A stretch of 64,000 nt of DNA from contig OZ237747.1 of NCBI GenBank assembly GCA_965178125.1, forward strand, positions 1,054,001 to 1,118,000. Reading direction: 5' to 3'. The notes below the pieces were generated by a model that worked only from the letters and a program-made list of their open reading frames with translations, ran no database searches and was not told where the DNA came from. Position 1 is the stretch's first letter. The number at the start of each line of letters is the position of its first letter. This document shows positions 1 to 64,000 of this stretch, one piece after another. Position numbers and translations under genes: made by a program. This DNA is from Bilabrum cf. latius. Lineage: Eukaryota.

Positions 1-260
1 CTGCCACCTGCTGCACCTGCATTGTGCTGCCGAAGCCTGTGGCCACAGAGGCATCGACTTTCTGAAATGCAATTTACGCAATGCTGATTGCATTCTCTAC
101 ACTTCCAGCGGACTTGCATCGCTGCGAGCCGCTATGCCCTCTGCCTCGCCGACAATGGTTTGGCAGATTTTCCTGGCATGCCCACGGGTCGTCTGGAGCT
201 GGGCGCATATCCAGTTGTAGAATGACTTGTTCGGCCACTAGCCCCACCCGATGCTGCCAT
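1..260 (-). CDS. FAM221-like Cys/His-rich protein, 5' part (runs off the window start)
   Basis: ATG at 260-258 gives MAASGGASGR...RQRA(TAG 134-132)RLAAMQVRWKCRECNQHCVNCISESRCLCGHRLRQH. The W.C...C...SRC.CGH.L..H pattern resembles FAM221A/B. Absent from the ORF track because of the TAG. Confidence 0.5.
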
Positions 261-399
261 ATGGAGGTATTTTGTGCCAGAAGTTCACGCTTGCAACGGA
301 CGTGAAAGGAACGTTCCATGTTCCAACGAAGGTCTATTTTCAACGGCCGCGTGAGAAGCAAAATAGATACTAATTCCACTGTTCAGGTACCAGCATCAT

Positions 400-1881
400 T
401 TACCTCCTTCCACCCGTTGCAGTACCGTCGGCGGCATTGATTTCGGAATGCAGAATGCCAGCTAGCAGCGCAGCCACCTCCCTCGGACGCTCTGCATGCA
501 GCCAGTGCCCCGCTGCAATGGAATGCAGCCTGCAGCTACCCGTGCTAAGAGAATAGGATTCGACAGAAGCTTTGTTCAGCGTAGACACAGCTGATCCACC
601 GCCGTCACCGCCACTATCAGACACCCCGTCCGGAGCACTTGCTCTGGAGCGAGCATGGTCAAGAGACAGCCCTGAAGGGTCCAACGCCCGAGGCAGAGGC
701 GCAGGCGATGCAGGTGAGAGCACGCCTGCGGAACCAGACGGACCATCGCGGCGCCGCGCATCCTGCGCCTCGAGCACGCCCTGCAGCCTTGCGACCACTT
801 TGGGCACTCCCCAGCGAGCCCCCCGAGTGCCGAGCACGAAATCGATCGCGGCGCCGCGCGGGGGGTTCCGCAGCAGGTCCCACGAGTCGATATCAGCCAG
901 GTCATGGTAAGCGTTCAATGCCTCGACTGGATCAAACGTCCACACAAACCCATCACTGCCACCATGGTCGTCAGCATGGTCGCGCCCGCTCAGTGGCACC
1001 CCGCGCTCGTCACACGCTGCTTCCGTCACGTTCGTCGTCATCCACTGAGAGAGCGATTTGCTGAAACCCAGCTGCGAAAAATACTCACCCGCCGCGCGGC
1101 GGCTGGGAAACGGAAGCGGCGCAGCACGCACCGCCTCGAGCACGACCTGCACACCATCCTGGTCCCGCCGAGCCTTATGCGGTGTGACGAGTGGATTTCC
1201 TGTTTGTGTTCCCTATGATTGCGAAGGGTGCGTTCTCCACCTTCCCGGGTACGTGTCCAGCACCACGAGGCGTCGCCGGCGGTGCTTCGCGCTGGTGTTG
1301 CTGCTGGGGCTGCTACTGCTGGTGGCAGTGCTCGGCCCGCCCTGCGAATGCAAAATTACTTTGCCGCCCATGGAGTGCCCGATCACCACGTTGATCGGAG
1401 TGGGGGATAGTGTCGGCAATGATGCTTCGTCCAGTCGAACCGCTGACGGCGGAACAGCCGAGTGTGGTCTGTGAAGAGCCGTCCCCGCTGGCACGTCCAG
1501 AGCATGCAAACCAGTCGTGCCCTCGATCTCAATCTCAGACAACAGGCTATTTAATTTCGCTGCGCACCTTTTTACAGATACTGGACGCACGTCGCTGTGC
1601 AGTGATCCAGCGTGAGATGGTAAATCGACGAGGACCGCTGCCCATCGGTTGGCCTCCCGCTCGCCCACTCTGTCCTTTAAGGCACGAAGTACTAGCCTTG
1701 CCACGGACCGCCAATTCTTGCCTGCACCCATCAGTCCATGCACGACAGCGAAAGCTTTGGTTGGGCTTCTTGCTCCCGGGAGAGCTACAAGCTAATGGGC
1801 CAGGGATGACGCATGCCGCCGCGACACAACGACTTCTTGAGCTTTCAAGCACTTTTTCACAAATCTGCGACTAGATCTCAT
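400..1881 (-). CDS. Alpha/beta hydrolase, ABHD11/YbfF-like, 493 aa with 2 in-frame TAG read as Gln; basic N-terminus could be a mitochondrial presequence
   Basis: Motifs VHGLMGAGKNW, GHSMGGK (nucleophile elbow), LVVLDTYP and AGHWLHAERP. ORFs 1213-1743 and 400-1152 are in one frame, separated only by TAG at 1215-1213. A second TAG lies upstream in LAH*LV. ATG at 1881, TAA stop at 402-400. Confidence 0.85.
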
Positions 1882-2019
1882 GCAGCACACCTGATCCAAC
1901 CAGCTAAACTTTGGCTGTCCGGATTTGGGTGGAACGAACGTTCGAAAGTGGCCGCCGGAAGAGGTTCGTTCCTCGGTGCGGAGTTTATCCGCGGCATCCG
2001 TGTGTACTCAAAGAAGCGC

Positions 2020-5000
2020 ATGTCGAGCCATCGGCAAGAGTCCTTTGCCGATCGATTCGAGATTTTACGTAAAGCCGCACGGTCTGGCCCCGGCCGCCGC
2101 CTGAAGGAGGTGCTGAACAAGATACCCTCATCGTTCATTCGTGTTGCATTTGATCATCCCCCAGCGTCCTATTTGGTAGAAGTTGGCCAGAATGGTGACC
2201 TGTCTGTGCAATCATCAACATCATAGAGCTTGTTCTTGGAACCTTCCGAAACAGCTGCGTCTTTTCGGAGCTTCTCGGTCCGGTACAAAGATGTGGCTAC
2301 GTGGCGGCGCATTTAGGAGCGCACGATGAATCCAATGCAAGCATACTTCCAGGGATTGATACAGTTTGAAGGAGATAGATCACTCGGGATGTATATGCGT
2401 TCGATGGTGGAAAGTGCTAGGTCCACGGGTAAAGCCGACCTGACCGAACGTGCCATCGCCGCACGCCCAGTCGTGGCCGGAGCCAAACGACTAGACGCAC
2501 CCCAGGCCCCGGCATCGTATGCACTGCAAATTGCACCAAGAGAACTGCGAGAGATTCGGCAGCTCCTTGCGGAGCGCGAAGAAGAAGAGACGAAACGCCT
2601 CAGCGCAGAGGCCCGAGCAGAGGAGACGGCCGCCGACCTCAGGAAGCTGCAGGACGTGCAGGCCGAAATATTCGCCGCTGATCTGAACGCAAGGGCGCAG
2701 TAGAGCCACTGGATCTCTCTGGCATTGCTCGCGTGGTTGGCGTGGACGTACACGGGCTGGAGCGCTGCCCTGCTGGGAGGCCCCGTGCGCTGGGCCTCAG
2801 TGACGTGGCAGCTCGGAGCTGCTGTGGTGGCGGGCACAGATCAAAGGGGCTCTGCAGTAGACTGTTCAACCACTAAAATCGCCAACTAGTCCGACCACGG
2901 AGCCTCGGCAGAGGCAGGAACGATTTGGACAACAGGGTCCGCGGACTTGATCCTGTTGTTCCTTGGCTGGTGCGCCGCGTGCGCCCCGCTGCTGCCGCTT
3001 TTCGCCTACTGTGCGGGCTGGTGGGTCTTCGTGAAGGTTCCTTAGAGCAGCTTCAGCCGGAGGTTACGGGTGGCCTTCGCGGCAGGCAGCCTCCTCCTTG
3101 GTTTGCGGTGGGCGAGGCGACACGCCGAGAGTATCACGGACGAGGAGGAGAAAGAGGCGTTCTGGGACGTGAGGCTGAGGGGGTACGCCAGGTTTGCCTA
3201 CGAGCACATCGCCAGGCTGAAGGGGTTCTGGTGCAAGGTGGGGCAATACCTTTCCAGCAGGGCCGATGTGCTGCCCAGGCCATTCGTGCGGGAGCTGGGC
3301 AAGGTGCAGGACTCGATGCCGAGCACTGCATTCAAGGAAATCAAGCGGATCGTGGAGGAGCAGTCGGGTGCCAGTTTGGAGCAGCTCTTCTCTTCCTTTG
3401 AAGAGAAGCCCCTCGCCTCCGCCTCCATCGCACAGGTGCACAAGGCCACCCTCAAGCCAGAAGCCGCCAGGGAGCTCCCGCAGTCTGGTGTACTGCTCAA
3501 GCGGCAGGCAGCGAGAGCGGCACACGCCACGGGCAGCGCCAGCAAAGGAGCCGCGGGCGCCGCGTCCACCTCTCGGCAGCGCGGCCTCGACGTCGTGGTC
3601 AAGGTGCAGCACCCGAACATCGACCGCATCATGCGCGACGATCTATTTAACCTCGATCTCCTCGTGAGAGTAGTGGCCTACTTCGAGCCCGAGTTCGACT
3701 TCCGGCCGGTACTGGACGAGTGGTCTGCAGAGGCGGAGAAGGAGCTGGATTTCTCAAGGGAAGGCAGGATCACTAGGAGGGTGGGGCGGGCGCTGCGGGC
3801 GGCCGGCACCTTCGTGAGGACTCCCGAGGTGCTGGATGTGCTGGCGGCCGTGCGAGGGCTCGGCCTGGGGCACAAACAAGAGGGGAAGCAGACAGCGGGT
3901 GGGAATAAACAGCCTGAAGGGTCGCCGACATCTTCCACCACCGGTGGATTGCTCCCGGGGCAGTGCCCTCCCGTGGAGGGAGGCGCCAGGGCTGGCGTGC
4001 CCTCGCTGCGAGCTGCCGTGCCTCCATCCGGAACCGTACCGGACGTGTACGACGGCGGTGACGCGGATGGCAAGGCGCTCGACGGCGCGAGCGGGGGTGC
4101 CCCCAGCCGGATCTTGATGCTAGAATTTGTGGAAGGGTTCAAGATCACGGACAGGGAGAAGCTGAGGGAGACGGGGGCCGATCCCACGCAGCTGCTGCTC
4201 GGAGTTTGCGAGGCGTTCGGCGTGCAGATGCACCTTCTCGGCCTTTTCAACGGCGACCCGCACCCCGGCAACATTCTGGTAGAGAAGGTAGCAGAGGGCG
4301 AGGAGAACTGGGCCAGAGAAAGCGGCCCCGACGGGGGGCCCGCAGGAGGCAGCGGGCCGAGCTTCGACCAGGACCCTGCCGCGGGGTCTCTGCGCCCTGT
4401 CCTGCTAGACTTTGGACTCGCCAAGCTGCTGCCAGAGAGCTCCAGGATCGCCTTCTGCGAGATGGTGCAGGCGTCCTTCCTGAACGACTTTGCCACGCTC
4501 TACGACGCCTTCGAGAGGATGGGCGTGCAGCTCACGAGGGAGCAGCCCATGGACGACATGGTCGCTGTGAGGTACCTACTGCGCGACGTCGAGCCGCCTG
4601 CCAAAGCAAGGGCCAGGATGCTGAGGCAGAGGAAATGGATGCAGGCGAAGCGGAAGGAGAGGCTGGCGGCCAAGCAGCGCAGGCCGGTCGAGGCGTTCCC
4701 CGGCGACTTGCTCTTCTACCTTCGCACGTCGGAGCTGCTGCACGGGCTGGGGTCGGCACTCGGCGCCGAGCTGCCCTACCTTACGGTCGTGGCTGGGTAC
4801 GGGCGGCTTGCCACGCGCGCGTTCTACGCCGGCACGGACCCGCTCTTCGATGGGAATCGAGGGGATGAGGCTGCCACTGCTTTGGATGCAGACGCGCTGG
4901 ATGGCGGGCTCGTTGGAGGATCTGCTGCGGCTGGTAGGGGCAGCATCTGCGACTCGAACGAAGTCCTGCCGATGCTTGCGGCACCGAGTCGGCATTCTGG

Positions 5001-7509
5001 CTTTGTGGACGATGCCGCCAGCGCTTCGGGTTCGTCGCAGGCTGACGCCGGGCCGGAGTCGACGGTGGTTTAGCTTGCTCGGTCTATCCAGGAAGAGGGC
5101 GGTGCCTGGGCCCCGTCTGCCAGGGCACACCTCGCGGTCGAGGGCCTCCTTGCTGGGGAACAAGCGGAGGTGCGGGCGGGCAGGGCGGCGCAAGATGCCA
5201 AGTCCAAGGCGAAGCAGGGTCCTACGCGAGCGGAAGGCAGGGGATCTCCGCTCCTGCACAAGACACGGACTAGCGCAGGCGGGATGCAGGCAGCGGCTTC
5301 CTCAGCGCAAGCCAGGCAGCCGCACAGATCTCGCCTGACTCACTCTGCGACCGCCGCGGCTGGGTCGATGAGACCGTCTCAGTCTCCCTCCAGCGTGGGC
5401 AGCGCCCCCATCGTGAGGCTGTTCCCCAACAGAAGCGAAGAAGAAGAGGAAGAAAAGGCGGGAGCAGCGGGGTCTCGGTACGGCTACGGCGCGCTTGCCG
5501 CGGCCATGCCGATCCCACCTTCCGTGCGCCGCTTGCGTCCGTTTGTGTCATCCCTGGAGGAGCAGGTGCATCGCATGATGGTGGAGATGGTGCGGGCTGG
5601 AGACGCCGTGGGCATGCAGGTGGCAGTGTACCGGCGGGGCGAGCTGGTGGTGGACGTGGCCGGCGGGGAGCTGGGCATGGACGACCCGAGGCAGGTGCAG
5701 TCCGACACTCTGTTTAACGTGTTTTCTGCCAGCAAGGGCGTGCTTGCTGCTGGCCTGCATGTGCTGCTGGAGGACGCCCATGCAATGAAGAGACAGGAGG
5801 ACGCTATGCTGAGAGGTGGTCACGCGGGCGGAGCTGAAGCTGCTTCTAGTACGCTGGATGCCACACTCACTGAGCTAGGCTACGGTGACAGGATCGGAAA
5901 CGTGTGGCCCAAATTTGCAACGAACGGTAAGGAGGATGCTACGGTGGCAGACGCGTTGACTCACTCCACGGGGCTGGCACACCACCTGCCGAAAGGCGTG
6001 ACCGCAGCGACGATGTGCGATCACAACAAGATGGAGAACTACCTTGCGCACTGCAAACCCATGCACCCTGTGGGCCAGCGGGTGGCGTATCACTACTACA
6101 ACTACGGCTGGATCGTTGGGGGTGTGTTGCGGCGGCTGTATGCAAAGTCACAGCCGGGCCGATTCTTCGACGATCGAGGGCAGCCCAGCGCAGCGGCTCC
6201 CACTGCCGGTGGCATCCTGAAGGAGGTGCTGCTTAGTCGAGTGGGCGGGCATGCTCTCAATGGTGAGCTGCACCTTGGGGTGCCCGAGGAGCTCGTGAGT
6301 GGCAGCGCGCCCCGTCTAGCTCGGCTGTGCGGCGACTTCGGTGTCACCAGCCGGGCGGTGGGCGAGTCGTCCGATGACGCAGCCGGCGGAGCGAAGGCAC
6401 CGGCGGGTGCTGGCGCCGGTGCAGACGATGCAAGCGGGTCTGGTGGCCCAGACAATAATGAGTCAGGTGGGGACATGCCCGCCGCGGGCTTGTTTGGCGG
6501 CAGCGGTGGGGGCGGCTCAGGAGGTGGAGGGCCGCAGGGTGGCATGGGCCGTCTGATGGGCCTGGTGCAGATGGCGTCCAACGTGGGGGACGATGACGAG
6601 GACAAGGAAGGGTACTCGATGGATGGTGGTGAGGACACAGATTCTACCCATGGTGCTGCGGGGTCTACCGGTGGGCAGGGTGGCAAAACAGGGGATGGCC
6701 ACAGTGGCAAGGACGGAGGCGTTCTATCGGCCATTGATGCGGCTGCTGGCAGGCCGCCCCGTCCGGCGCCGGCTGGAGACGCATCCCGGACAGAGATGCT
6801 GGGAATGTTGCGTGCAGTCAAGAGGGTCCGAGGGCGGGAATACCTGATCGACCCGCGGCTCTTCAACCGCGCCCCCCTCCGCCGTGCAGAAATCCCCGCA
6901 GCCAACATGCACTGCAGCGCCCGCGCACTGGCTCGGGTCTACGCGTGTATGCGGCCCATGGACTCGCCTGCAGCTCATGCGCCAGGCAATGGCTCGGGTC
7001 GTGACGGCCAAGCTAATGTGCATAGCAGGCCGCGAGGCTTGCTGTCAGAGGATAGATCCCAGGCGATCAGAACGGTTGCGGGGAGGCAGGAGTCCTCCCA
7101 GCTGCAGAGCTTGTTCGCTCCAGGGGAGGGGCAGGGGGCCGCAGCGAAGGGGGCTGGAAGCGGGGGCAAGTCGTTCCTATACTGGGGCCTGGGCTACCGC
7201 CTGTACCTTCCTTCTGGCGGGGGAAGAGCGGGAGGAGCAGGCGCGGCTGTGGGTGCGAGCGGTTCCAGGGCTTGGTCGGGCAGCGAGGGGTACACGCAAG
7301 GTGGGATGCGAGCTGCATCGTCTCCGCCAGTCGTATCTCCCGCGTTCGGGCACACTGGTGTGGGCGGATCCATCGGGCTGTACGACGCAAGCAGCGATAC
7401 TGCTGTGGCCATCACGGTGAACAAGCTGGACTTCTCAATGCGGCCCACAAGGCACCTGCTCGAGATGCTCGCGTTCGAGATGCGCCTGCCGCACCTGAGG
7501 CTGCACTGA
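2020..7509 (+). CDS. Fusion protein: SCP2-like sterol-carrier domain, hydrophobic/TM segment, ABC1 (UbiB/ADCK) atypical kinase and serine beta-lactamase-like domain; 1829 aa with 6 in-frame TAG
   Basis: One frame from ATG 2020 to TGA 7509 with TAG at 2224, 2314, 2701, 2887, 3043 and 5071, and no TAA/TGA. SCP2-like MNPMQAYFQGLIQFEGD. ABC1 motifs KVGQYLSSRAD, PLASASIAQVHKA, VKVQHP, ELDF, NGDPHPGN, LLDFG. Beta-lactamase motifs FSASKG (SxxK), YYN and GHTG. Confidence 0.88.
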
Positions 7510-7871
7510 TTTGGAACAGTGAAAGTGGCCAAGTTGAGGTCGATATCCAAGATCAAAGCAAGCTTTGAAATGCAACTTGGACCAAGCTGTACATGGGACG
7601 AAATACAAGCGCCGAACTCAATTTATTTAGATCTACTTAAACCTCCAAACCGTGGAACCTAAATAATGAACAACCATAACTCCAATCTTGAGCTCTTTAT
7701 TGGCTCAAATGGCGGATATTTAGGCCTATGGTTAGCATTCCGGACAAGTTCGTTTGATAACGTGCTGTTGTTATAACTCAGACTGGATCCAGATCCGATC
7801 CGGATTGCAGCGTCACCACACATTTACCATTCACTTTCCCGCTCCGAAAACGAACTCATCGCTTGTAAGGC

Positions 7872-8804
7872 ATGGCAAGAGTATCAAACTTTGATTGCTG
7901 CGACCGCTCGTTCTCGTCGGAAGCCGCCATGGAGCAGCACCAGCGCGACACCGGCTGCCAGGATGAGGATGAATTCGAGTGCTGTGGCCGCTCATTCTCG
8001 TCGGAAGCCGCCATGGAGCAGCACCAGCGCGACACCGGCTGCCAGGATGAGGATGAATTCGAGTGCTGTGGCCGCTCATTCTCGTCGGAAGCCGCCATGG
8101 AGCAGCACCAGCGCGACACTGGCTGCCAGGATGAGGATGAATTCGAGTGCTGTGGCCGCTCATTCTCGTCGGAAGCCGCCATGGAGCAGCACCAGCGCGA
8201 CACCGGCTGCCAGGATGAGGATGAATTCGAGTGCTGTGGCCGCTCATTCTCGTCGGAAGCCGCCATGGAGCAGCACCAGCGCGACACCGGCTGCCAGGAT
8301 GAGGATGAATTCGAGTGCTGTGGCCGCTCATTCTCGTCGGAAGCCGCCATGGAGCAGCACCAGCGCGACACCGGCTGCCAGGATGAGGATGAATTCGAGT
8401 GCTGTGGCCGCTCATTCTCGTCGGAAGCCGCCATGGAGCAGCACCAGCGCGACACTGGTTGCAGGCAAGATCCATTCGCTCCATTCAAAGGGGCAGATGG
8501 CGAGATGATCACTCCTGAGGAAGCGCTGACGACAAGCTTGAAGAAGTTCTACGGGGTGTTTAGATGCGCTCCATGCGACCGAGAGTGGCCTAGCGCGTTC
8601 GTCCGACCCATCGACCAGAAGGGACAACAGCGTGCGAGATTTGGGAAGCAGAAATGCAACAAGTGCGAGTAGATGCGCACCGTGGATCGCATCTGGAGGT
8701 GGGATGCACTAGCCGAGCGGGCAGCGGCGGGCAGCACGAGGAGCGGCAAGGAGCACGACCGGGCTAGGTGCGAGCTGTGCCTACGTGGCGACAGGTGTCT
8801 CTGA
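7872..8804 (+). CDS. Protein with 7 C2H2-like zinc-finger repeats and a C-terminal 3CxxC-type (ZAR1/RTP-like) zinc-binding domain; 310 aa, 1 TAG
   Basis: Repeats of CCGRSFSSEAAMEQHQRDTGC, then FYGVFRCAPCDREWPS...QKCNKCE(TAG 8670)MRT...KEHDRARCELCLRGDRCL-TGA. The H...CxxC half of the 3CxxC domain lies after the TAG. Confidence 0.75.
7896..8462 (+). repeat. Near-perfect 84-bp coding tandem repeat, about 7 copies (28-aa unit)
   Basis: Directly visible repeat of tgctgtggccgctcattctcgtcggaagccgccatggagcagcaccagcgcgacaccggctgccaggatgaggatgaattcgag with very few substitutions. Confidence 0.97.
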
Positions 8805-42137: not shown

Positions 42138-42357
42138 GGCGCGGACATGATTTCGTCTTGTAGCACGCGGCAAAAACGTTTCATAGCTCCTGGTAGGCCC
42201 AGTACAGCCTCGCGATACGTGAGACGGACCCGTGAACATTTTCATACGCTACTTCGAGTTGAGCTAAATCTGATTCCCAGGACCTTTCCGATGGACACCG
42301 CAAAACAAAAATCTTAAATCACTGGAAATTGCGCTCAGATAACAAACGTGCATATAA

Positions 42358-46380: not shown

Positions 46381-46744
46381 GTGAGCTGAACTGATTTGAA
46401 TTAGGACTGTCTGCACCCCCGCTCGCCAACAGGCCCCATGCACGTGCGATCAGGTCTAGCCCAGAGAGACGATACCTGTGAGCATGGGTTGGGCCTGCTG
46501 GTATGCAGCGTAACTTTGGTGGTTACATGCTGGACATTGCACGTTCTCAATGCTTTCATTCATGTGCCTTCTAACCTCACGCGTGGGTATGCTTCTCCTG
46601 CTCACTGGATCGAAGAAGAAGCGGAAAATTCAACAATGCGCAGTTTTTCTCGCCTGGCAGCCGTTTAAGGAGAGGTTCAGCTCAATTTCAATTCATCTTA
46701 TTCTTTTTATATTTGTTATTAAAACAAGTGACTAACCCGGGCAA

Positions 46745-51899: not shown

Positions 51900-54800
51900 G
51901 CGATTGGCTGGGTACCTGGACGAGGCAGCAGACGGTTGATCATTTGAAGGGCTTCCGGATTTCACCTGAATTTTATTCATTTCAATGCCACACGTAGGGA
52001 GTTCTTGCTGCACATGGATCGCGCATTTTGCCTCCCAGTGGGACGTCTGTGCCACCGTTCGTTCAGCTTCGCCTGTTTCCATTCACTGATTAGTCTCAGT
52101 CCAAAGTAGAAGCCAGGATTTAGTAGCAGGAATTCGATAAACAGAACGAAATTAATGGGCATACTGATGCATCGAACGTGTAGGATGTGATATATGCCGG
52201 GCTCATGAGCAGATCGCTGGTTGTCTCTGTGCCAACTGTGGCTAAGGCAATCGATACTGGGTTGTGCGGAAGCATGATGAAGGCAGCATCCCTCAACAAC
52301 GACGTAGTATTCGCAGTTCTCGATGACTCTGGAGTCCCACTGCGAAGGATGGGTCTAAGCGGCAGTTCAGACGGGTGGTCATGCATTTTGGTGTTCGAAA
52401 GGGTGTGCTTAATGAAGTATACCCCACCAATTTATCACACACGACAGTGCTTTGGTATTGCGATAAAAGAGACATTGTGTTAACATGCCTGGGCCAGGCC
52501 ACACAGGAAGCTAGGGACGTTCAACTTGAGTTCTTAGAAGATGAGGGCTACGACAGTGAGTCGCCGCCCGTCGCACAGCTCCGATAGGAAGATGCAAAAG
52601 TAACAGCTGGACCGGGTCTGGCTCCACCACCCGCGTCTACGCCGACGCGAAGCCTGCCCTGTGGGCGACTAGGACTCATGAGACGGTCAGATGCCTTGTA
52701 GATCCTTATTTGTGGCCTGATAGATCAAAATTCGGCTAGAAGACTCAGCGTATGCCGAGCCACGAGGCAGCTGGAGCGACTGCTCAAGCAGTATGAGAAG
52801 TGCCTCTTTGACCCGTGCGGGCTCCTCTTAGCCCCCCCGACGCATTCAATTCGCGTCAGAGGTCGCAGACCCCAGGACAAAAGTGCAGGTAGAAAGCGAA
52901 GGGATGGCAAGAGTGCCGACGCATGCATGCCGGGGAAGAGCCCGGCAGCCAGCGGGGCTAGAGACAGCTTATCGAATCCAAGCATAAATGCTAGTAGAGG
53001 AAGGCAAAGTGCATTATCTTCAATGGGCATCCCTCAACAGCGCTTGAGATAGCACATCGTCCCTGACGTAGGCCACCAACGTGCGGCGCTGCACAGGTCT
53101 TTGTCGGCTACTGCGTGGCCTGGTGAGGCTCAACGTGTGGCGCTGCGACCTGCCATCCAGGGAGACGGATCTTAGCTGGCTACAGCCAGGTCGTTCAATC
53201 GGGCAGGTAGGTCAAGAAGGCCATTACTCAGTTTTCGACACGAAGCACGCAGGTCACAAACCCCGTTTCCTGAAGGCGGGTCCAGCTTCGGAGAGGTTGC
53301 AAGGGAAGATGGCAGCGAAAGCGGTGGACGGTTTGCTAGCGACTTGGATAGAATGGCGGTTGGTGGCAGCTCGGTGGCATGCTTTGATGCTTTAACAATT
53401 GACATGCCAGAGTGCCGTCAACAAGCAGTGTTGCTGAACGGCCTTCTTTCGCTGCACGGTGACAACGTGCCACAAGCCAGCCCTGACAATATTGGCAGCC
53501 CGATCGAAGACATTTGGTCTGGTAGCGAGTCAAACTCTGACCAGGAGGACGTTTAGACATCAATTGAGAGGCGATGCACCGTTCAAGTCTCTGAGGACGG
53601 GCCTAGAATGCCCACCAAGCTCCAGACCTGCCCTACGCGCAGCTAGCCGGACAGGGATTCACCTATGGCTCCGGATGTCAGCTGCGGCACGATCGAGGGG
53701 ACAAGCACCAGTCCATCGTATTTGCGCGGGCATGATGTGTTGGTAGTATCCGATGTGGACTGGGTAGGAGGCCTCCAAGGTGAAGCAACACCGGGTTCGT
53801 ATGTTGGAACCGGACCGCCGGATGACGCGAACTGCGAAGTGTCAGGCCGTGCAGGTGCTGATGCCCAGGGTGACCTGTACCGCGATACCGCACAACGGTA
53901 GCAAGGAATGCCAACTAATGGCCAGCTAGATGACTAGGTATTCTAGCAGGTGCATGGGCCAGTGCCAGTGTCCTGGTATGTCAAATAGACCCGAGCACAG
54001 GGGTGCTGTAAGGGCGAGGCATCATTGATGGCACTACCTCAGTTCAAAAGGATTCCAATGCCTATTACCGGCCAGCGCAAACACCACAACTATAAAAAGA
54101 GCAGTCAAGACCAAAAAATGCTGATTAAAATGCAGGAAAGGTATTGCTGGTTGAGTCAGCGATGGGAGCATCCGTCCGGCGGGAGGGTCGAGTCCCCTGG
54201 ATCTAGCTCGGGAACTGGCTGCAACGGGTTGGCCGGGCAAGCTAGTGACGGTGCTGATACTAGGGGTGTAAATGATAGTGCGACGTCAAAAGTAGCAGCT
54301 ACAGGCAAAAACACGGGTCCTTTTCATGCAATAGCTGCGGGAATAGATGAAGAGAATGACTAGGATCATTGGCCTGACGATGTGCTTGATGGTGTACCTA
54401 TCGTGTCCGAAACAGACGGTGAGCTTTTCGGTAGGCATTTTGATTCAAGCAATTCCAGCAATACAGAATGGACATGTGTGTCCATACCAGGCACGGAGCT
54501 TGTCCGACTTGCGCAAAGAATGCCGATGGCGCTGCTGAGTGTGGAGCGTGTAGATGGTCAGGTAGGCCCATACGAGTTGCCCGACTTGGGTGATCCGTTG
54601 GAGCACGCCGATCCAATTGCGTCAGGCTTCCTTGACTCAAGCTAGTAGACTGACGCTGGCTACACCGACTTTGTGGCATGGCCTGTGAGCGGGGCGGTTT
54701 AGCTCGGTGTACAGCTCGTGGGAGGGCCGCCGCCCATCGCCAGGCAATACACTGGGAACTCAGACGACAGCCACGGGTCGAACAGCTACCCAGCTAGCAC

Positions 54801-55838
54801 CGTTTTGGATCTGTCTGTTTTAGAGCCACCGGAACGGGGTCCATGGAGAAGCCGCCCCGCAGAACTCGCAGCCATGTGGCAATTGGGGCAGCCACAAAAC
54901 CCCTCTGCTCAGAATGCCCAGGAAAGCGAGCCTTCGTTTGGGCAGTTGTGTCGCTAGCGGATGCGCCGCAATGCCTCACTGCTATCTGTGGGTGCTAAGT
55001 TGCTGCCATGGGCACTCAAAGCGAGCTCGGACTCTGGGTCAGAGACCCGACCAGAATCAGGCACGCTGCAAGGGTTGGCACCCAGTACTAGGCCTAGGTC
55101 GGGATCAGGATCGACGTCAGGGTCAGAATCTAGCAGAGGTAGCTGGTTTCACGAAGGTGGTGCGTTATAGCCCCAGCAGCTATCCTGGACAGCGCTGCAA
55201 ATGGCGAGGATTAGCGTCCCAACGAATATACAGGACTGTCCATGGCCGCGCCAGGGATGCCCATATGGTCTCACGATCAACAGGATGGAGCTGCTTGGTA
55301 CGATCCCGATGATCGACACGGTGGTAGTGGTATAAGCACCACTGATGGACTTAGAACCGGCGTTGAGCTAGCGGGCGGCGCGGCAAGGGGTGGGACAGGT
55401 AGCGCACGGACTCTCGAGGCACGGGAAGTAGATCACCATGTGGGGCACAATGAGGCTGGCATATCCTGCAATGAAGATGCAAGAGCTGCCTTTCTGGGAC
55501 CTTAGTCGCATGGCATCTTGTCCCCTCGGTGGGATCCACAGGAACTGCTCCCAGCTGCTGCCAGTGGCGACGCAATCGAGCAGGCCGGCAGGAGCGAGTC
55601 AGCAAGCCGGCAGGCTGATAGTGTGCGCGGAGATTGCGACGCTTGCAGCATGCCGCTGCATGCGGCGCTCACTATGCTACTGGCACAACTCGAACCGGCA
55701 AGCAGTGAGGTACATTTGAGCACTGAAAGCACTGCACGCTCCGATGCGTCTGGTGACGGCACTTAGTCGGAGCCAGGCAGCGGTGGCGACTCTGGGCCTA
55801 GTAGTCGAGGCGGCAACTCAGGACCGAGCGACAGAACG
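51900..55838 (+). pseudogene. Degenerate pseudokinase module 4 (positional paralogue of module 2)
   Basis: GVRKGVLNEVYPTNLSHTTVLW, LTCLGQA, L*ILICGLIDQNSARRL. Frameshifts near 52370 and 55200. The APE-QLG segment appears deleted. Confidence 0.5.
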
Positions 55839-56039
55839 TGAATTATGTATATTGAAGTGAAGACGATGTGCCCCCGCGCGCCAACAGGCCCCATGTACGT
55901 GCGACCAGGTCTCGTCCAGAGAGACGATACCTGCGAGCATGGGTTGGGCCTGCTGGCGCGCAATTGTGGCAGCAAATTACTCGATTGATGTTGCTGGAAT
56001 GATTGGCTTATATGAACCAATACTAGTTTAACATTTTAC

Positions 56040-59000
56040 TGGGCAGCCGCTTCGAAGTATGCGAGGAAGTGGACTGGATGCGAAGTATGCTCTGATGGCC
56101 GCGCAAGTGCTAGCCCTCGGGGTTGAAAAGTTGGTGCTGCATGGGGTCCTTCCAACAAAATTATCATCTGACACCGTATTTTGGCATTCATTTCATCGAT
56201 AGTTTGTGTAAAGTTACACTGTAAACTGGGCTTGGGCAGGCACTTTGTGTTGAGTCAAGCACTCCGTGGCTCCCAAAGCAGAGGCCTGGTCGCATTGCCG
56301 ACATTCAACCCTATCTGAAGGCTGTTCATGCAGAAGCAAACCGCGTCACACTTTCTTGGTTGCTAGAACATGGTATTGTCGCGCGGCACGGCAAATTGCC
56401 TTCGAGCTTTGCCCCCGAGGTTAGGGAAGCGCACGCAGCTGCTAACGGTGTTGTTTCAGTGTCTCTATCGGCTGTATCCTCTCGACTGGGAAAGAACTTG
56501 GCTTATTAATTGGGACGATTGCTCTTTTTCATTGCTACGGGTGTGGAACTTGGCGATGAAAAGCCTCACGGATCCAAGCTGGGACCTGAACCTGCAGGCA
56601 CACGCGCAAGCGCAGGTGCGGCTGGGCAAGTGGCGGTGGGGACGAATCTTCAAGCCGAAAGGCCCCCCCCGGGCCATCAACAAAAGCTGCTGGATCCACA
56701 GCCACGGCAGCCCACGGCCCTGTCGCCGACCTAAAGCGTGGACCAAAGAAAGTGCAATGGCTCATCGCTGGGTTGCTGCGTGCCGACCCACGCAACAGGA
56801 CAAATGTGCTGGAGGCAACTCAAGTACTCGAAGATATCATTCAGACAGAGCCAAGGGTCAATCATTAGACTCCTCTCTTTCGATCATTTTCATTAGTCCA
56901 TGACGCGGCCAATCCGAGCATAGGCATTCCAAAGCTAGGGAGTGAGCCTAGCAGCTGCCCTGCCCGGATCGGTCCCCTGGATCGCCTTAATCGCTTGTGC
57001 GACAAAGATACGGCGCCATTTCGATCACCAATCCCTGATCTAGTGGTAGGACTAGCACGACCATCTTCCCCCGTGGCTAAAGGCCCAAGTGCGGTCGGCC
57101 TTGTAAAGCAGGCAGTCACCGGACCTCGCTCCGAAGCGGACCCCATGGACTGGGCGGTGGCTGCATCGTCAGCGCCACGAAGTTTCCCAAGCAGTGGCGC
57201 GGGCGACTTGGGTGAGCAAATGCTCGGACGGGGAAGCGGTCGCTCAACTGCGAGGCACTCCACTGAGACAGCGGCAGCGCCGGACATGGCGCGGGGTACA
57301 TTGGTCCTATCGGACAGCACCGCTGAGGGACCCGCCGACGCAGTAGAGCGCATCAGATTCGACCTGCAGCTCGAAGCTGTGACCAGCACGATTCCGAGGA
57401 CGCGGTCAGGATCGCTCCCGCTTCAGGCAGGGCTTCGAGTATTGAGGGCGAGCAGGCGGGGGCAGGGATCTGGCCTGCCTCCCTCCAGCGCTGGGGACTC
57501 CGCCTAGCCCGGAGATCACGGCTCTCGACGAGCACGTGAGGTTGCATTCTGGCGCCCGAAAGTTAGGCTCGACGATCGATGATCGGAACAAAGAAGTACC
57601 ATCTGGCGCGTCTTCTCATCCTGATTCCCCTTGTGTCTCGATCGGCAGCCCGTAGGGCACACCAAAGCAACCACTCATGACCCCGAGATTGAGCTTTACT
57701 CGCAGTGAGGGCGGCCCTGCTCCCATGGGAGGATAGTTGCACCGAGAGACGAGCTGGAGGCACGGTGATCGTGCTGTTGATACAGCAGATAGGATTGAAG
57801 AAGAGGGCGGTGAGGACGGCGAGGAGGACGGAGTCGATCGAAGCGTTCTGGTTCCACAACCAGATCAGTCTGATAGATATCCTCAATCTATCCAGTGAAA
57901 CGCCGGTGATTCCCACCATGTAACTACAAGTAGGAGTTCTTTGTCCTCTCATGTCTAGGCTGTAGTTCCCGCTGGTGGTGTCCGTGCGGCAGGTTCGCCC
58001 TCAAGCGATGGGACCGGACAGCTACTAGCGAGCATAGCTCGGCCTACCTTAGACATAGGAGCGGCGTAGTCTTCGACGGTGCTGGATTGGGCATGCAGTG
58101 GCCTGCACCGTGAACACCCGCAAGCTGCTGCTATTCGAGACATCCTTGGCGGCTTTTGCCGCGGTGTTCGTCCTGGGGATTTGCAGGCCAAAGTGCAGCA
58201 GGATTTGGTCTCAGCCGTAGACAGATGGCCCCGGCTGCCGACCCTTGTCTTCGTAGAAACATTTTGAGTTATTTTGGCCAGGACTTAGCAACTGGAGGAG
58301 CTGACCATGGTAGTAGCGGCCATGCGGACCTGTCAGTATCGGCGGCAGCTTGGGCTCCTGTTGGACGACGAGCAGTCAATCGTGCTTCGTTGGCAAGCAT
58401 TACATCTATGCTAGGCCGAGGAGCTGCAAGCACAGTAGACACTGGCAGCCCAGTTGTGTCACGTGGGGGAGGTGTGAGCCCCACTCCGCGCGCTCATTCC
58501 CCGGAGAACATCTTGAGAAACCACTCTTCGGGGTCGCGTCACTCCAGCGCCTGAGGACATCTGAGCCCACGCGTGGTATTTCAGCAGGCGAGCGTGGTGG
58601 ACGAAGTCAGGCATTCGCATCGACGATCGTCACGGCAAATCTCTTTCTTCTAGACTTCGTTACGGGAGGCCCCTGTCTCGCGAGCTGGCCCGTCGTCACC
58701 GCTGCGTGCACAGTGCGGCAGCGCCGGTGGAACAGCCGGTCTTGCGTCTGGTCAGAGACACCACCAGACGCATGTCGGAGGCTTTACCGGGTAGTAGCGC
58801 CGGATAGCGCCTGCGGACCGTGAGCCGCCCAGCAGCCTTGCCCCTATCAACCCTGCAAGGGAGATCAGTATCGGTGGAGGCTCTTCTGCTGGTGCACAGG
58901 GTTAGGCTGTGCAGCTCAGTCAAGGTTGCATCGACACTCCCAGTACCCGAAATGGGCCAGGTGGGCCACTGCCAGCGCAAGGCAGTCACATTGCAAGCAG

Positions 59001-59330
59001 CGCCCAACGCCAAACCGCCGACTCGACCCCGAGCCCTTCCAGCCCCGGGATATTGTCGCCTCGGTGGCCGCCAGCACAGCAGCATGCTCCCATGCATTCA
59101 GCGGTAAAACCGAGTATGGACGTGCCAGTGCCACGTCTTGGGGAAGACAATGCAGACACTGCTGCGGGCCCATCACACGCGGTGTAGGCCTAGCAGGGGC
59201 GTGGCAATCGCGATGATGCAGAGGCCAGCGCGGAGGAATGGCGCGTTGCTGCTGAGAGCTTGGAGGCCCCTGCCAGTGCTTGCATCCTGCCTGACGCTGT
59301 GTTAGCGCAGCTGTTGCCATGGAGGACGGA
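56040..59330 (+). pseudogene. Degenerate pseudokinase module 5 (paralogue of module 3)
   Basis: GVEKLVLHGVLPTKLSSDTVFW, FAPEVRE, NLAY(TAA)LGRLLFFIATG, LIAGLLRADPRNR. N-lobe missing, small insertion at ~56207-56227, TAA at 56507, frameshift at a C8 run near 56663-56670. Confidence 0.58.
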
Positions 59331-60281
59331 TAGCGAGACGGGCAATTATAGTGAAGATGAGGATACCGGTCATGCTTGATGACCCCTTAATCTCCAAAAC
59401 CCCTGCGTGGATCTACCGAGTTCCTCGATTACGACATCTGCATGGAGGGAAACGTATACTCTATTGGAATCTTTTCACCCGTCAGGGTCAAGCGCCATCC
59501 GGATTCCGGATTGCGTTACAGGAGCCCAATTTGGATCCCGATCCGGATAAGGGGTATCTACTGGATTTTATACCGAGCAACGATCTCATGGAAAGCATTG
59601 GAATACTGATCACCTTGATATTACGGGCGTTCATACTACTCTTTCCTAAGCAAAACCTTTCGAATCGTCGGTGAACCATCCGGTTACTTTGGCCATACAG
59701 TCACAACTTGCAACTCTAAGCCTACCATACAATAGTATGCATACCACCCTGGCTTCTATGGTCGCTAGCATTGTATGCTACCACTCGCTGACCTTGCTGC
59801 CCCCTGTTTCGGGTCCTTAGTGATCAACAAAGAGGCTTCTTACCACATGTTGTACACAGCACCACGGAGACCTAGTTTTCGAGCCCGCTGCCAGTGTCTC
59901 TATCACCCTCAACCAGCCAATGAAGGGCTTCTCAATACCTTTGAAGTTCGAAGTGAGCGCACAGAAGCATCTGATCGTACATGTCGTGTCGATCCTGCCA
60001 TCAGGTGGATCTTGGTAGCTTGCGGAACTTCCGTGATATTGTGCGCGGCGACAAGCCGCACAATTCTTTGCAGGCGAGACTGCAGCATAGTTGATCAGCT
60101 GAAGCGTTCAAAGGCCTCACTAGTGTTTTATCTTGTATTGACATTTCACGCAGATTTAGTAGTGTGCAGTCAGCCGGTTTGCTGCTAATCATCGCTTTTA
60201 CAGAGTAGTCGTTCGACTGTCTCCTGCAGTAATCCGCGCAAGGGCTCTTACAAAGATCGAGATCACAGCTCATTCATTTAA

Positions 60282-63200
60282 GTCGGTGATTCTCGGTTTG
60301 AAGACACGGATATAGTTCGTAGGTTGATTCAACAGCTCGGGACAACAGCTCGATTCTACGACTGTAGTGCTACTGTAATGACCAGAGCAACAAAAAGCGA
60401 ACCTGGATACGCAGTGCGAGTGATTTGCTTTTTGGCAATCATATTAGCCGTGTTCTCGGTAATATCACTACCGAGCCAAGGATTGATCGTGCAAAAATCT
60501 CAGTAGGATACACTGCAGACTTTCTGCGTTCCCGGAATCAAGAGATGGTTGGTCATGAAAACTAGCCACAGTAACGCAACCTGGCACCTACGTTTCGTAG
60601 AGAGAACTGACTTTGGGTTCTTGTTTGCGAGAGCCCTGGTGAATTCAAGCGCTGAGGCGCATCGCTTGGTCAGGGATTCATCGAGCAGCCTTGCCGAGCA
60701 CGTATACCGTGCTACAGGTGGCAACATCAATATATATGGTTCAGAACTTGGAAATCTATCTGTGTGGATATATCCGGTACCTCAGTATGACGGAGAGCAC
60801 GTGTCTATTGTGGGTAGCGAAGCAGGACAGCTGAGATGCGAAGAGCTGCCAGTGTGCTTAAATTATGACCGCATCGAGACTTGCTCCGAAGTAAAAGGTG
60901 CCCGTGAAAATAGTTGGGTAGAAACGTCGGGCATGATGCGTACTTTAGCCGTAGGCGCTGCACTCTAGTCGATTCCAACGCTGCTCGGTGTTCTCGTTGC
61001 GCTGGCAGCACACCGCCGCAGTAATTCTTGCAGGGCGAATGCAACGTCCTGCGAAACTCGTTGCGAGTATGCAGTGGTATTTGTCCTTCATATATGTGCC
61101 ATGAGTGGTGTTGTATGGTCGTACGCACATGTGCCTCGTCTTTGGACCCGCAACCATGCTGTGGCATGGTAGCATATGTCCTTTATTGAGTTCCAATGGC
61201 TACTCGCCAGCGCTACCCCCGATCTCCACGTCAATTTGTTCCTGTTTTTGTTCCAACGGACCGGCATGCTCGCAACGACACCAGTGCAGGTGGCATTACT
61301 GCTGTACTCATTGGGCCCATGCATGCAAGGCAGTAGCTGCTATTCTAGCATTCGCGCAAGTTGCGAGGACAATGAGGAGACTAGTGCGCAGCATCCATGT
61401 GCCAGCATTAGCAGCATGAAGCGCGAGCTTAGCAGCGAACTCTAGACCCCACTGCTACACACGTAGTACGCAACACTGCCAAACGCTCGGCTTGGTGCGT
61501 CCTGTCCGTCCACTGCAGAGATGGGATCCAAATCGCGGCGGCACGGTGCTTAGGCCCGCACATGGGATACACGGCTGCGTGGCTATGATATAGAGCAAGG
61601 TAAATAGGGCTATAGCATTTGCCACGTCCAAATATATGGAGATGAACAGCGTGGCGCTGCCGGTGTACCTAACCTTGTGACAAACCAGACAGCAGAGCGA
61701 GGCCGGATCAACGGTGTGTCGTTCAGTGGAGAATCTCGCAGTTGGTTTGGATCTATTTTCTCAGATGCTACTTTATTTGACTGTCGTTCGGATGAAACTG
61801 ACTCCGCTTCAGATTTGGATTCTTTGACATCCTTTGCGGAGCTGGAGCTGGAGCCGGATGCGGCGCGGTGGATGCGGCCTAGAGCGGCTACAATCAATCC
61901 GCAAACACGGAAAAGAGCAGATTACTACTCAAGCTAGTAGGCGCATACTCAATCTGATTGTAATAGACCCGTAGCAGGTCAGCTACCAGGAAGGAGCTCC
62001 TCATGCTTGGACGGACGCATTTGCTCACTACTCGATGAGCTGCCAAGCACGGCACCAACGCCAGGATAGCGACTAGCTGCACAAGATTCGGATGAAATTG
62101 ACGTTGAATCAAGGTATTTCACATACTTACAAGCGTCGAGTCCCCTTCCGTCGCTTCTACTTGCCGAATCACAACCCACAGATGAGTCAGACGACGAGAT
62201 GCCTCAGTGGGAAAGGCTCCCAGAGGACCACCCCGACAACGACATCCCGCTGGATGCATGGATACCCCAGCTGGGGATGGCTGTGGGTCAGCGCCAGGAG
62301 GTCGGGGAGGCCACCTGGGGCAATACCGAGTCAGACGGAGATGGCACCGTCACTGTGGTCGACTCCGAGTGCTCTGAGCGAGCATCCGAATTGCTTGGCC
62401 GGGATATACCGCCGCAGAAACCTAGCAAGCCACACACAAGGCCTCGCTCCGCCGAAGTTCTAGATTGGTGCACTCCCCGTGGCAAAGGCATGAATACACG
62501 GCGAGTACGCTACTCGAGCTCCCCTGACCTCGAAGCCGGCGTCGACGGCATGGCCCACGACAGCAGTATCTGCGACGACAGCTCTGTGTTGTCGTTCGGT
62601 AAGGCCCAGCTTCGCAGCGAATGGGACGTCGCTCGAATGGATCCCACCGTGGGTGACCTGCCGCCGGACATATTCGAGCAGGCCTACCGGCATCATGACG
62701 ACCTGCGCGCCTCTGCTGAGAGAGTGACGGACCCTGAAGAAGAGCTGGAGACCCCTGCTGGCAGCATGGCTGAGCAGGGGTGGCTGTTGCGAGAGGACGC
62801 CATGCCGCTGCCTGACGCGCGCGATGTGGGGCCCTCAGCCGCGCTTTCTGCTCATGAGGATATTGCGCATCAGCTTGCGTCTCAGCTAGGACGCGGTATG
62901 TCGCTGGGGGACGACGAGCACGATGATTGGGACGATGATTTCGAAGACGAGTTCGGAATGTCGCCGTGGGCGCTCGACAGGACGCACCTGGCGCATCGTC
63001 CCACTGGCACGCACTCTGGCGCAGTCTCTTCGGCACCTCCCGCAAGGTGGCGAGACTGGCAATCGCAACCAACGAGTGATTCACCTACTACTAGTAGCGG
63101 CGAGGAATTGGTGCAAGATTCGGCCCTGCCATCTCTGCCGGGCTTGTCCGGGAGAGCTGCACTGAGGCCAGCAGAGCACTTCCTGCGTGCCTCCCTCCCG

Positions 63201-63377
63201 TCTGGTTTAGCGACAACAGAGCAGAGCAGAGAGAGAGAGCCAGGAGTGCACCCGTAGTAGCAGCGGAGCAGGAGGGATTCCGTTGACTCCGTGCTTGAGT
63301 GGGCAGGGGTTGCAGGCGGGGGGACTGCTCGTGGTGGCGAGTCTGAGCGTGAATCTAGTGGGCAATACGACAACTGA
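60282..63377 (+). CDS. Uncharacterised membrane protein with acidic low-complexity C-terminus (last exon; upstream exons likely around 59740-60250)
   Basis: Track ORFs at 60324, 60549, 61176, 61677 and 62199 are in one frame joined only by TAGs, ending TGA 63375-63377. Hydrophobic segments VICFLAIILAVFSVISL, LAVGAAL*SIPTLLGVLVALAA and NLFLFLF. No family recognised. Confidence 0.55.
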
Positions 63378-64000
63378 CCTGGTGGACCTAGCTGCCGCGA
63401 TGGAGCGGCAGCTTTTCCTAGCCGCTCCCCACTAGGACTCCCCATCGGCCATTACTAAAATCGTCGGTGGAACGAACAAGTGTTGAGTCAAACAGGTCAC
63501 ACATACAGCCCGGAAATGACGCGTTGAACCCGCACAAAGCGTAATGAAATGATATCGCGGTCAGTGCTATCGAATCTGTATTGACGCAGCATCGGCCCGA
63601 GATAGGGTGTACTTTGGTTGCCTGGCTAAACGCACGGGCCCGGTGTGCACCAACGTGCGTCCCACTCGAATAATGTTCGACCAGCGATCGCACGTTTTGT
63701 TTTGGCCTTGGTTACTTTATGCGCTATTCTTTCTGATTGTGTGTATCATGATTTGTCATGACTACCATTAGCACTTCAAAACCCATTTGATTGAACCAGT
63801 AGCACTAGACACAAGTTGCGTGGTTGGATTTCAGCGGAAATTGAAAGTGTGGAGACGATTGGAAGAGCAAATTTGGGAGCCTAAATTGATCGAACGGTAT
63901 GATGGAGGGCTGTCGTATGCTGAAGCTCTTGCAGGAAGTAGCAAGGATGCTCATGAGATGATCAGGTCGAATACTATTAGTCTTTGTGATCACATTAAAA

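Follow-up and report, generated by a model that had tools for sequence, protein, structure and literature searches.

In the window analysed here, the whole stretch of 64,000 nucleotides (positions 1..64000, unstranded; GC 0.52-0.63), UAG is very probably read as glutamine, UAA and UGA are still used as stops, and the nuclear DNA probably comes from a stramenopile related to Cafeteria. The UAG = Gln code variant, a rare departure from the standard code, is itself already known, from Iotanema and some ciliates. The eukaryotic, nuclear nature of this protist DNA, where TAG codes for an amino acid, is supported by a GT..AG intron and three chitin synthase copies, and the preliminary description, made from the letters alone, had rightly seen an intron-containing eukaryote that encodes chitin synthase.

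Reading frames and stop codons

Under the standard stops, the maximum frame length in the 64-kb window is 811 codons, and open reading frames (ORFs) of at least 300 aa total 5,120 aa. Reading TAG as sense raises this total to 20,585 aa and produces 7 frames of at least 1000 codons, the longest having 1899. Treating TAA as sense gives 6,443 aa, and treating TGA as sense gives 17,198 aa with a maximum of 912 codons, and neither yields a frame of at least 1000 codons. The large total for TGA is due to the abundance of this triplet, which outnumbers each of the other two stops in the window. If TAA plus TGA occurred at their off-frame rate of 0.025 per codon, the chance of finding neither in a frame of 1000 codons would be about 8e-12.

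Codons were counted in 16 frames bounded by TAA or TGA, which contain 13,932 codons. TAG occurs 143 times in frame versus 132 and 152 times in the two other frames, and is therefore not avoided. In-frame TAA and TGA are both 0, versus 43 and 69 for TAA and 218 and 373 for TGA in the two other frames. The frames end in TGA (12/16) or TAA (4/16), an outcome that follows from their construction. A noncircular check was based on the 7 frames of at least 1000 codons that are delimited by TGA alone, in which none of the 10 in-frame TAA is farther than 221 codons from an end and the 111 TAG are distributed along the whole length. Conversely, when TAA alone is used to delimit frames, TGA in the real ones is confined to the margins. 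These observations support the action of UAA and UGA as stops, with window-scale evidence for UAA, as had been proposed earlier. The code in which both UAA and UAG specify Gln (NCBI table 6) was rejected, with 0 TAA among 13,932 codons and only marginal TAA in the TGA-bounded frames.

An alpha/beta-hydrolase frame (400..2007, reverse strand; Pfam Abhydrolase_6, E 1e-05) contains 2 TAG, and a piggyBac-like transposase frame (19098..20447, reverse strand; DDE_Tnp_1_7) contains 4, and both end in TAA. A C2H2 zinc-finger repeat frame (7869..8804, forward strand), built from an 84-nt unit repeated 6.8 times, has 1 TAG and a TGA end. The low-complexity long frame at 9693..14210 (forward strand, no Pfam family, TGA end) has 20 TAG in 1506 codons, as first described, and the full frame (9543-14210) has 23, since 3 more lie before codon 51 (= 9693). 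A tandem family of large paralogous genes, whose likeness to protein kinases is sub-threshold only, extends over 38820..59379 on the forward strand. Its members at 38820-42137, 42358-46389, 46736-51070, 52327-55335, 56590-57582, and 58555-59379 have 12, 21, 16, 16, 2, and 6 TAG, respectively, and the first three give numbers to the many TAGs previously noticed in 38844-51070. The same impression for 60282..63377 (forward strand, 1031 codons, no Pfam family, TGA end) corresponds to 12 TAG. In the 64-kb window, 0 tRNA genes and no rRNA were found, and it does not contain eRF1.

The statement that traceable genes end only in TGA or TAA agrees with all 16 frames, by construction, and independently with villin, the sole gene whose end is fixed by homology and which stops at TGA. 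This end also bears on a dual use of UAG, as Gln inside genes and as a context-dependent stop at some gene ends. Context-dependent stop/sense codes exist in Condylostoma, karyorelicts, and Blastocrithidia, and in four frames of the window the last TAG precedes the bounding TAA or TGA by 9 to 39 codons (codons 748/757, 361/382, 992-993/1031, and 1405/1444). However, near-end TAGs match chance at about 1% TAG per codon, every one of the 16 frames reaches TGA or TAA, and TAG is equally frequent in and out of frame, with no sign of avoidance. A dual use, though compatible with everything seen in the window, is judged unlikely. With UAG read simply as Gln, TAG accounts for about 1% of codons and for 20% of those that putatively specify Gln.

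TAG codons in putative transcripts

The villin gene (forward strand) consists of exon 1 (14692..14761, with ATG at 14692), an intron of 470 nt with GT..AG borders (14762..15231), and exon 2 (15232..17969), which encodes six gelsolin repeats and a villin headpiece. The exon joint, seen in contigs of runs X6 and X7, runs from 14759 to 15230 with the cut set at +2, and exon 1 was delimited by the splice-frame reading. The TGA stop comes after the C terminus defined by homology, a headpiece whose last residues are GLF. Exon 2 contains 4 TAG (first bases 15411, 15420, 15519, and 16668), and the intron-spanning contigs of X6 and X7, which are treated as RNA by software guess only, match 15230-17669 with 0 differences and retain all four. 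A contig of run X1 (14619-17669) reads straight through the intron.

The gene for an ABC1 atypical kinase with a beta-lactamase-like region (2020..7509, forward strand; Pfam ABC1 3.7e-46, Beta-lactamase 3.1e-26) is a single frame of 1829 codons plus TGA. It has 6 TAG (first bases 2224, 2314, 2701, 2887, 3043, and 5071), and the recount thus agrees with the 6 TAG in 1830 codons reported before. Contigs of runs X6 (2007-7120) and X8 (2007-7572) show 0 differences from the gene and keep all six TAGs. Splicing-out or editing of the TAGs, a possibility raised in the preliminary description, is not seen in the contigs of the putative RNA runs, where 4 TAG in villin and 6 in ABC1 are unchanged; the presence of UAG in putative mature mRNA, neither spliced out nor edited, is therefore supported.

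An unchanged code, with the TAGs produced by sequencing errors, pseudogenes, splicing, RNA editing, or leaky stops, is accordingly very improbable, and no evidence in its support was found. The letters at the TAGs are identical in contigs of four runs (15230-17669 and 2007-7120, 0 differences), and a spliced-looking contig retains its TAGs. Pseudogenes would gather TAA and TGA too, yet there are 0 in the cores of frames of 1000-1899 codons. With up to 23 TAG per gene, low-rate read-through of leaky stops would give no full-length protein. In addition, the same TAG pattern is found in an ABC1 orthologue of another organism, the metagenomic contig L001 (4072 nt, GC 0.60), which forms a single 1357-codon frame containing 5 TAG, 0 TAA, and 0 TGA.

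The amino acid at TAG sites

Comparisons with homologues, paralogues, and an orthologue support Gln as the probable meaning of TAG. In chitin synthase copy 2 (27099..31791, reverse strand, several exons), alignments place a TAG (29515..29517, reverse strand) at the Q of the QRRRW motif. This site is Q in 97/97 aligned homologues and also in Phytophthora sojae Chs1, for which a structure is solved (7wjm), and it is CAA in chitin synthase copies 1 and 3. Copy 1 (23274..26314, forward strand), with several exons in different frames, has a TAG at 24311 after the W of an SQxW stretch, and copy 3 (33936..37667, forward strand) has TAGs at 34824 and 35384. In the tail of copy 3, a 63-nt unit is repeated in tandem 5.7 times (36897-37258), and five consecutive units each carry an in-frame TAG. 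The chitin synthase assignments are backed by Pfam or PDB matches.

In villin, three of the 4 TAG columns have Q in 91/119, 53/119, and 80/119 homologues. Since Q-majority columns make up 27/767 of the well-filled villin columns, the agreement between TAG and Q has P = 1.5e-4. Log-odds summed over 7 independent sites are +10.0 bits for Q, 0.0 for M, -13.7 for I, and -19.5 for L. Together with the QRRRW site, these data uphold the earlier statement that TAG sits at conserved Gln positions.

Four homologous sites, comprising 5 TAG codons, are exceptions, lying opposite L, F, I/V, or I. The column of villin TAG 100 is L in 61/117 homologues and Q in 4/117. The TAG site common to chitin synthase copies 1 and 3 is F in 102/150 homologues and Q in 2/150, although the closest relatives are among the two Q homologues and CAG occupies the site in copy 2. 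The TAG at 35384 in copy 3 is opposite I or V in 88/88 homologues, and the paralogues have K and L. Such hydrophobic residues in distant homologues could be taken to mean that UAG encodes a different residue, for example Leu (its meaning in rhizarian exLh), Met, or Glu, and M is the runner-up for villin alone (8.4 bits versus 11.2 for Q). However, the invariant Q of QRRRW and the summed log-odds leave these residues scarcely credible.

The orthologue comparison also favors Gln. The aligned ABC1 TAGs of the window are opposite CAA, CAG, CAG, and ATT in L001, and the TAGs of L001 are opposite CAG, GAG, GCC, and AAC in the window, plus one gap. The single GAG would fit Glu, but 4 of the 8 aligned partners are Gln codons (P = 3.7e-4 at 5% Q), and Leu and Met codons are absent among the eight.

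The claimed exchange of TAG with CAG/CAA among paralogues holds only in part. An exon-level comparison of the three chitin synthase copies found CAG/CAA in a paralogue at 3/6 homologous TAG sites, and in the long-ORF paralogues (25-34% identical) Q is opposite TAG in only 1/23 partners.

Lineage and relation to known variant codes

The lineage was placed by one gene tree and best hits. A single-gene tree of villin recovers the window as the sister of Cafeteria roenbergensis and one JGI protein (support 0.995), and the window and Cafeteria fall inside a group with oomycetes (support 0.933). The closest named ABC1 homologues are from the ochrophyte Phaeothamnion and then a diatom. Judged from these sequences, the organism most likely belongs to the stramenopiles, as a relative of the bicosoecid Cafeteria, and since its villin groups with that of C. 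roenbergensis it is not a ciliate, in line with the earlier impression.

No report of UAG reassignment was found for the Cafeteria group, and the published list, as excerpted from PMC11687900, gives only ciliates and the fornicate Iotanema as lineages with UAG alone reassigned to Gln. The lineage thus looks new for this code. The villin tree, the best hits, and that list suggest an independent origin. Relatives of the ABC1 protein occur in public data at 92%, 77%, and 66% identity, and the frame of L001 contains the sequence of a relative at about 76-77% protein identity. Because these relatives exist and L001 has in-frame TAGs of its own, the balance tips slightly toward a change made by a clade of GC-rich Cafeteria relatives, and not by a single strain, independently of ciliates and fornicates. 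If true, this clade would offer a new system, perhaps amenable to culture, that has UAG uncoupled from UAA under a single eRF1.

The assignments of NCBI table 15 are the same as those of the Iotanema spirale code. In the nuclear code of this fornicate, UAG is Gln and UAA and UGA are stops (Panek et al. 2017, PMC5304391). Iotanema thus resembles the window in that UAG alone is reassigned, to Gln, and UAA and UGA end genes in both. In contrast, Iotanema is an anaerobic metamonad, whereas the genes of the window point to a GC-rich, stramenopile-like organism. In the present organism, UAG may be decoded by a tRNA-Gln(CUA), whose anticodon is one base from that of tRNA-Gln(CUG). Pairing of CUA with UAG but not UAA is described in PMC5304391, and by wobble rules it would presumably apply here. 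The N-terminal domain of eRF1 would be expected to bind UAG poorly while keeping its binding of UAA and UGA; the eRF1 change in Iotanema is T32G in the GTS motif (PMC5304391). The UAG change itself may have occurred independently of the ciliate and fornicate cases.

UAG alone is also Gln in two phyllopharyngean ciliate lineages and in Protocruzia tuzeti (McGowan et al. 2024, PMC11687900), which have the same code variant as the window; the variant has arisen more than once. Unlike in ciliates, the villin, ABC1, and chitin synthase genes of the window have stramenopiles as their nearest named relatives. Both UAA and UAG are Gln in many ciliates, Dasycladales, hexamitid diplomonads, Streblomastix, and Amoeboaphelidium (PMC11687900). 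These codes (NCBI table 6) share with the window the reading of a UAR stop as Gln, but TAA is not sense in the window. The rhizarian exLh code, in which UAG is Leu (PMC5304391), likewise splits UAG from UAA, but Leu is rejected in the window by the log-odds given above. In phage code 15, TAG is Gln in crAss-like and other phages (PMC9523058), and the codon assignment is identical to that of the window. In contrast to these phages, the window consists of DNA from a eukaryotic cell: it encodes villin and a piggyBac-like transposase, has a spliceosomal intron, and contains genes 1000-1900 codons long.

Stop triplets and long reading frames

Read with the standard stops, the 64-kb window has a longest stop-to-stop frame of 811 codons, and treating TAG as a sense codon yields long frames on both strands. 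In total, seven frames of at least 1,000 codons are obtained with TAG as sense, compared with none under the standard code, with TAA as sense, or with TGA as sense. The summed lengths of open reading frames (ORFs) of at least 300 amino acids (aa) are near each other for TAG as sense and TGA as sense (20,585 versus 17,198 aa), since no stop triplet is more common than TGA in the GC-rich DNA of the window; the sum alone is therefore a weak test, and the count of very long frames is a better one. The preliminary description of the sequence had reported 6 TAG in 1,830 codons at positions 2020 to 7509 (+ strand), where Pfam places a fusion of an ABC1 atypical kinase with a beta-lactamase-like domain, and 20 TAG in 1,506 codons at 9693 to 14210, together with many TAG at 38844 to 51070 and 60282 to 63377. 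The recount agrees with the first two numbers and gives 12, 21, and 16 TAG for the third region (taken from 38820) and 12 for the fourth.

Triplets were counted in 16 long coding frames bounded by TAA or TGA (13,932 codons) and in the two other frames of the same DNA. TAG occurs 143 times in frame and 132 and 152 times in the other frames, TAA occurs 0 times in frame and 43 and 69 times in the others, and the corresponding numbers for TGA are 0, 218, and 373. At the off-frame rate of TAA plus TGA, the chance of 1,000 codons containing neither is about 8e-12. As a noncircular control, frames were re-bounded by TGA alone or by TAA alone. With TGA-only bounds, the seven frames of at least 1,000 codons contain 10 TAA, all located at most 221 codons from an end, and 111 TAG distributed throughout. 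With TAA-only bounds, the real frames show the same pattern for TGA, which occurs in the ABC1 frame only at codons 43 and 1943 of 1993. The 16 frames end in TGA (12 frames) or TAA (4 frames), partly by construction, and this matches the earlier statement that gene ends are only TGA or TAA. One gene end is fixed by homology. In the villin gene (exon 2 at 15232 to 17969, + strand; six gelsolin repeats and a headpiece in Pfam), the headpiece reaches the last profile position and is directly followed by TGA.

Amino acids at TAG positions

The meaning of TAG was examined in three independent comparisons, with villin homologues, chitin synthase homologues and paralogues, and an ABC1 orthologue. Among 119 villin homologues (P0003 to P0121), Q occupies 91, 53, and 80 of the 119 sequences at three TAG columns, and the fourth column is led by L (61), with Q in 4. 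Columns with a Q majority number 27 of the 767 well-filled columns of this alignment, and matches at three of four TAGs have a P value of 1.5e-4. The catalogue protein P0002, which is 98% identical to the window villin, carries Q at each of the four TAG sites and was excluded from the counts because the code used by its gene caller is not evident.

The ABC1 orthologue is encoded on a JGI metagenome contig, L001 (4,072 nt; GC, 0.60), and its protein is 76% identical to that of the window over the best segment. Positions 1 to 4071 of the contig form a single frame of 1,357 codons with five TAG, no TAA, and no TGA. In the codon alignment, four window TAGs are opposite CAA, CAG, CAG, and ATT, and the five contig TAGs are opposite CAG, GAG, GCC, AAC, and a gap. 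Gln codons thus make up four of the eight aligned partners (P = 3.7e-4 at 5% Q). None of the nine sites has TAG in both sequences, which fits a free interchange of TAG and CAG through a single transition.

Three chitin synthase genes were recognized at 22.5 to 38 kb from Pfam pieces, an all-frame reading, and PDB matches. The copies lie side by side at 23274 to 37667 on the +, -, and + strands, each with several exons in different frames, and exons of all three match solved chitin synthases in PDB searches. Identity among them is 40 to 59% for the catalytic exons and approximately 30% for the membrane tails, and each copy terminates with a Cys-rich CCPWR stretch. A word-based search for homologues of one chitin synthase fragment gave no match, and homologues were retrieved in a full HMMER search that used a profile built from the three paralogous exons; the best full-length homologue was P0244, a EukProt transcript. 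In copy 2, the TAG at 29515 to 29517 (- strand) takes the place of the Q of the QRRRW motif, which is encoded by CAA in copies 1 and 3; all 97 aligned homologues have Q there, and so does Phytophthora sojae Chs1 (7wjm). A TAG common to copies 1 and 3 (24311 and 34824) is CAG in copy 2. The two nearest catalogue relatives have Q at this site, but F predominates in the full set (102 of 150 homologues). At the TAG at 35384, all 88 homologues have I or V, and the paralogues have K and L. P0243, a catalogue protein 95% identical to the copy 1 exon, has Q at the TAG site and, like P0002, was not counted, as the code used in its gene calling is not evident.

The tail of copy 3 contains a 63-nt tandem repeat (36897 to 37258; 5.7 copies with 97% matches). 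An in-frame TAG is present in five consecutive units (36957, 37020, 37083, 37146, and 37209), which indicates that a TAG-bearing unit was amplified within the coding frame.

The log-odds from seven independent homologous sites add up to +10.0 bits for Q, 0.0 for M, -13.7 for I, and -19.5 for L. Of 12 TAG codons of the window that were compared, 5, representing four homologous sites, have non-Q partners (L, F, I/V, or I); these five lie in variable columns or in columns where the paralogues of this lineage already have polar residues. A comparison of long-ORF paralogues, in which Q is the partner of 1 of 23 TAGs, is uninformative at the identity involved (25 to 34%). Judged from these alignments, Gln is the sole single meaning of TAG that fits. 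The assignment of UAG to Gln made in the preliminary description is supported by both the log-odds and the invariant Q of QRRRW, and a code with UAG as Gln and with UAA and UGA as stops is very probable.

TAG in presumed transcripts and its decoding

Four sequencing runs were compared with positions 1 to 20000, and the reading is limited to the covered parts. Three of the runs (X6 to X8) are presumed to be RNA, and no run among the 20 listed for the villin region is recorded as RNA. Contigs of X6 and X7 (2,518 nt each) join 14759 to 15230, skipping 470 nt with GT..AG ends, and a 3,051-nt contig of X1 is continuous through the same stretch, so that the pair has the appearance of a spliced transcript next to genomic DNA. 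The splice brings the ATG at 14692, in exon 1 (14692 to 14761), into frame with exon 2. The joined contigs show no differences from the window over 15230 to 17669, and therefore the villin TAGs at 15411, 15420, 15519, and 16668 are neither spliced out nor altered in these presumed RNA sequences. Likewise, a contig of X6 over 2007 to 7120 and one of X8 over 2007 to 7572, both presumed to be RNA, are identical to the window and include all six ABC1 TAGs.

Besides a villin 3' end identical to that of the window, contigs of X6, X7, and X8 contain another form of it, which differs at 29 positions in 330 nt (17640 to 17969) and has differing sequence past the stop. This form could come from a second allele, a paralogue, or a second strain.

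The decoding of UAG as Gln is efficient; low-rate read-through of UAG was rejected, since a gene with up to 23 TAGs could not give a full-length protein in this way. A tRNA-Gln with a CUA anticodon would decode UAG and not UAA, and a UUA anticodon would pair with both by wobble (established knowledge and PMC5304391); UAG could be freed alone because CUA reads only UAG, while UUA wobbles to both. The single eukaryotic eRF1 would have lost affinity for UAG and kept that for UAA and UGA. In Iotanema, the substitution T32G in the GTS motif of eRF1 was proposed to have this effect (PMC5304391).

Source lineage, known codes, and gene content

The best named homologue of the window villin is that of Cafeteria roenbergensis (43% identity; E value, 7e-208), with oomycetes next and well behind. 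In a FastTree phylogeny of 57 villins, the window sequence branches with P0002, and their sister group consists of C. roenbergensis and one JGI protein (support, 0.995); together they fall within a larger group that includes oomycetes (0.933). Phaeothamnion and a diatom have the nearest named ABC1-domain proteins, and one of the closest chitin synthase homologues is from a cercozoan bin. On the basis of one gene tree and the best hits, the best reading is that the source would be a stramenopile near the bicosoecids. A ciliate source is clearly ruled out, as the nearest named villin and ABC1 relatives are stramenopile, and the earlier impression that the sequence does not look like that of a ciliate holds.

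Relatives of the ABC1 protein in public catalogues are 92%, 77%, and 66% identical. P0124 (77%) is a piece of the L001 gene that begins past one TAG and stops at the next, and P0123 (92%) stops just before the window TAG at 5071. These truncations, together with the TAGs of L001, indicate that the code is common to at least one relative and that standard gene calling fragments genes of this clade. Assemblies and metagenome bins of the clade would therefore be badly annotated, with completeness underestimated, until NCBI table 15 is applied.

According to the variant-code cases compiled in PMC11687900, UAG alone encodes Gln in Iotanema spirale, Protocruzia tuzeti, and two phyllopharyngean ciliate lineages, Leu in an uncultured rhizarian, and Ser in Scotinosphaera, and UAR encodes Gln in many ciliates, ulvophytes, Hexamita, Streblomastix, and Amoeboaphelidium. 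Stramenopiles are absent from the cases named in the Discussion of that paper. Iotanema has the same code as the window (UAG as Gln, UAA and UGA as stops), but the window belongs to an apparently different major lineage. The code is one already known, the table 15 or Iotanema-type code, in an apparently new major lineage. A search of titles and abstracts, with few subscription journals and no supplements, found no report of a stramenopile with a variant nuclear code, which leaves absence from print unproven; within the same limits, the code literature on stramenopiles, bicosoecids, and labyrinthulomycetes yielded only organellar codes or unrelated work. We lean slightly toward an unreported, independent stramenopile origin of the code. 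Codes that separate UAG from UAA are few (PMC11687900), and each further independent case tests whether a CUA-anticodon tRNA suffices to free UAG from UAA and whether particular positions of eRF1 (the GTS motif, for example) are what allows a single release factor to drop UAG alone (PMC5304391). A stramenopile case, if true, would add another major eukaryotic group with split UAG and UAA.

The GC content along the window is 52 to 63%. ARAGORN found no tRNA genes in the 64 kb, and Rfam gave no matches there, with no rRNA. Other Pfam-identified genes are an alpha/beta hydrolase (400 to 2007, - strand), a C2H2 zinc-finger repeat protein (7869 to 8804, + strand), and a piggyBac-like transposase (19098 to 20447, - strand; DDE_Tnp_1_7; E value, 7.7e-11). 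The transposase frame contains four in-frame TAGs and ends in TAA, and it is either a mobile element adapted to the host code or a decaying copy. A tandem family of six large paralogues with 25 to 34% mutual identity and long low-complexity tails occupies 38820 to 59379 (+ strand). Pfam gave no match above threshold for this family, the best being a subthreshold Pkinase (E value, 0.006 to 0.012) that reflects a likeness to the protein kinase C-lobe. The C2H2 gene contains an 84-nt unit repeated 6.8 times with 98% identity (7896 to 8462), encoding near-identical zinc-finger modules, and the opposite strand of this repeat is likewise open and gives spurious Pfam matches.
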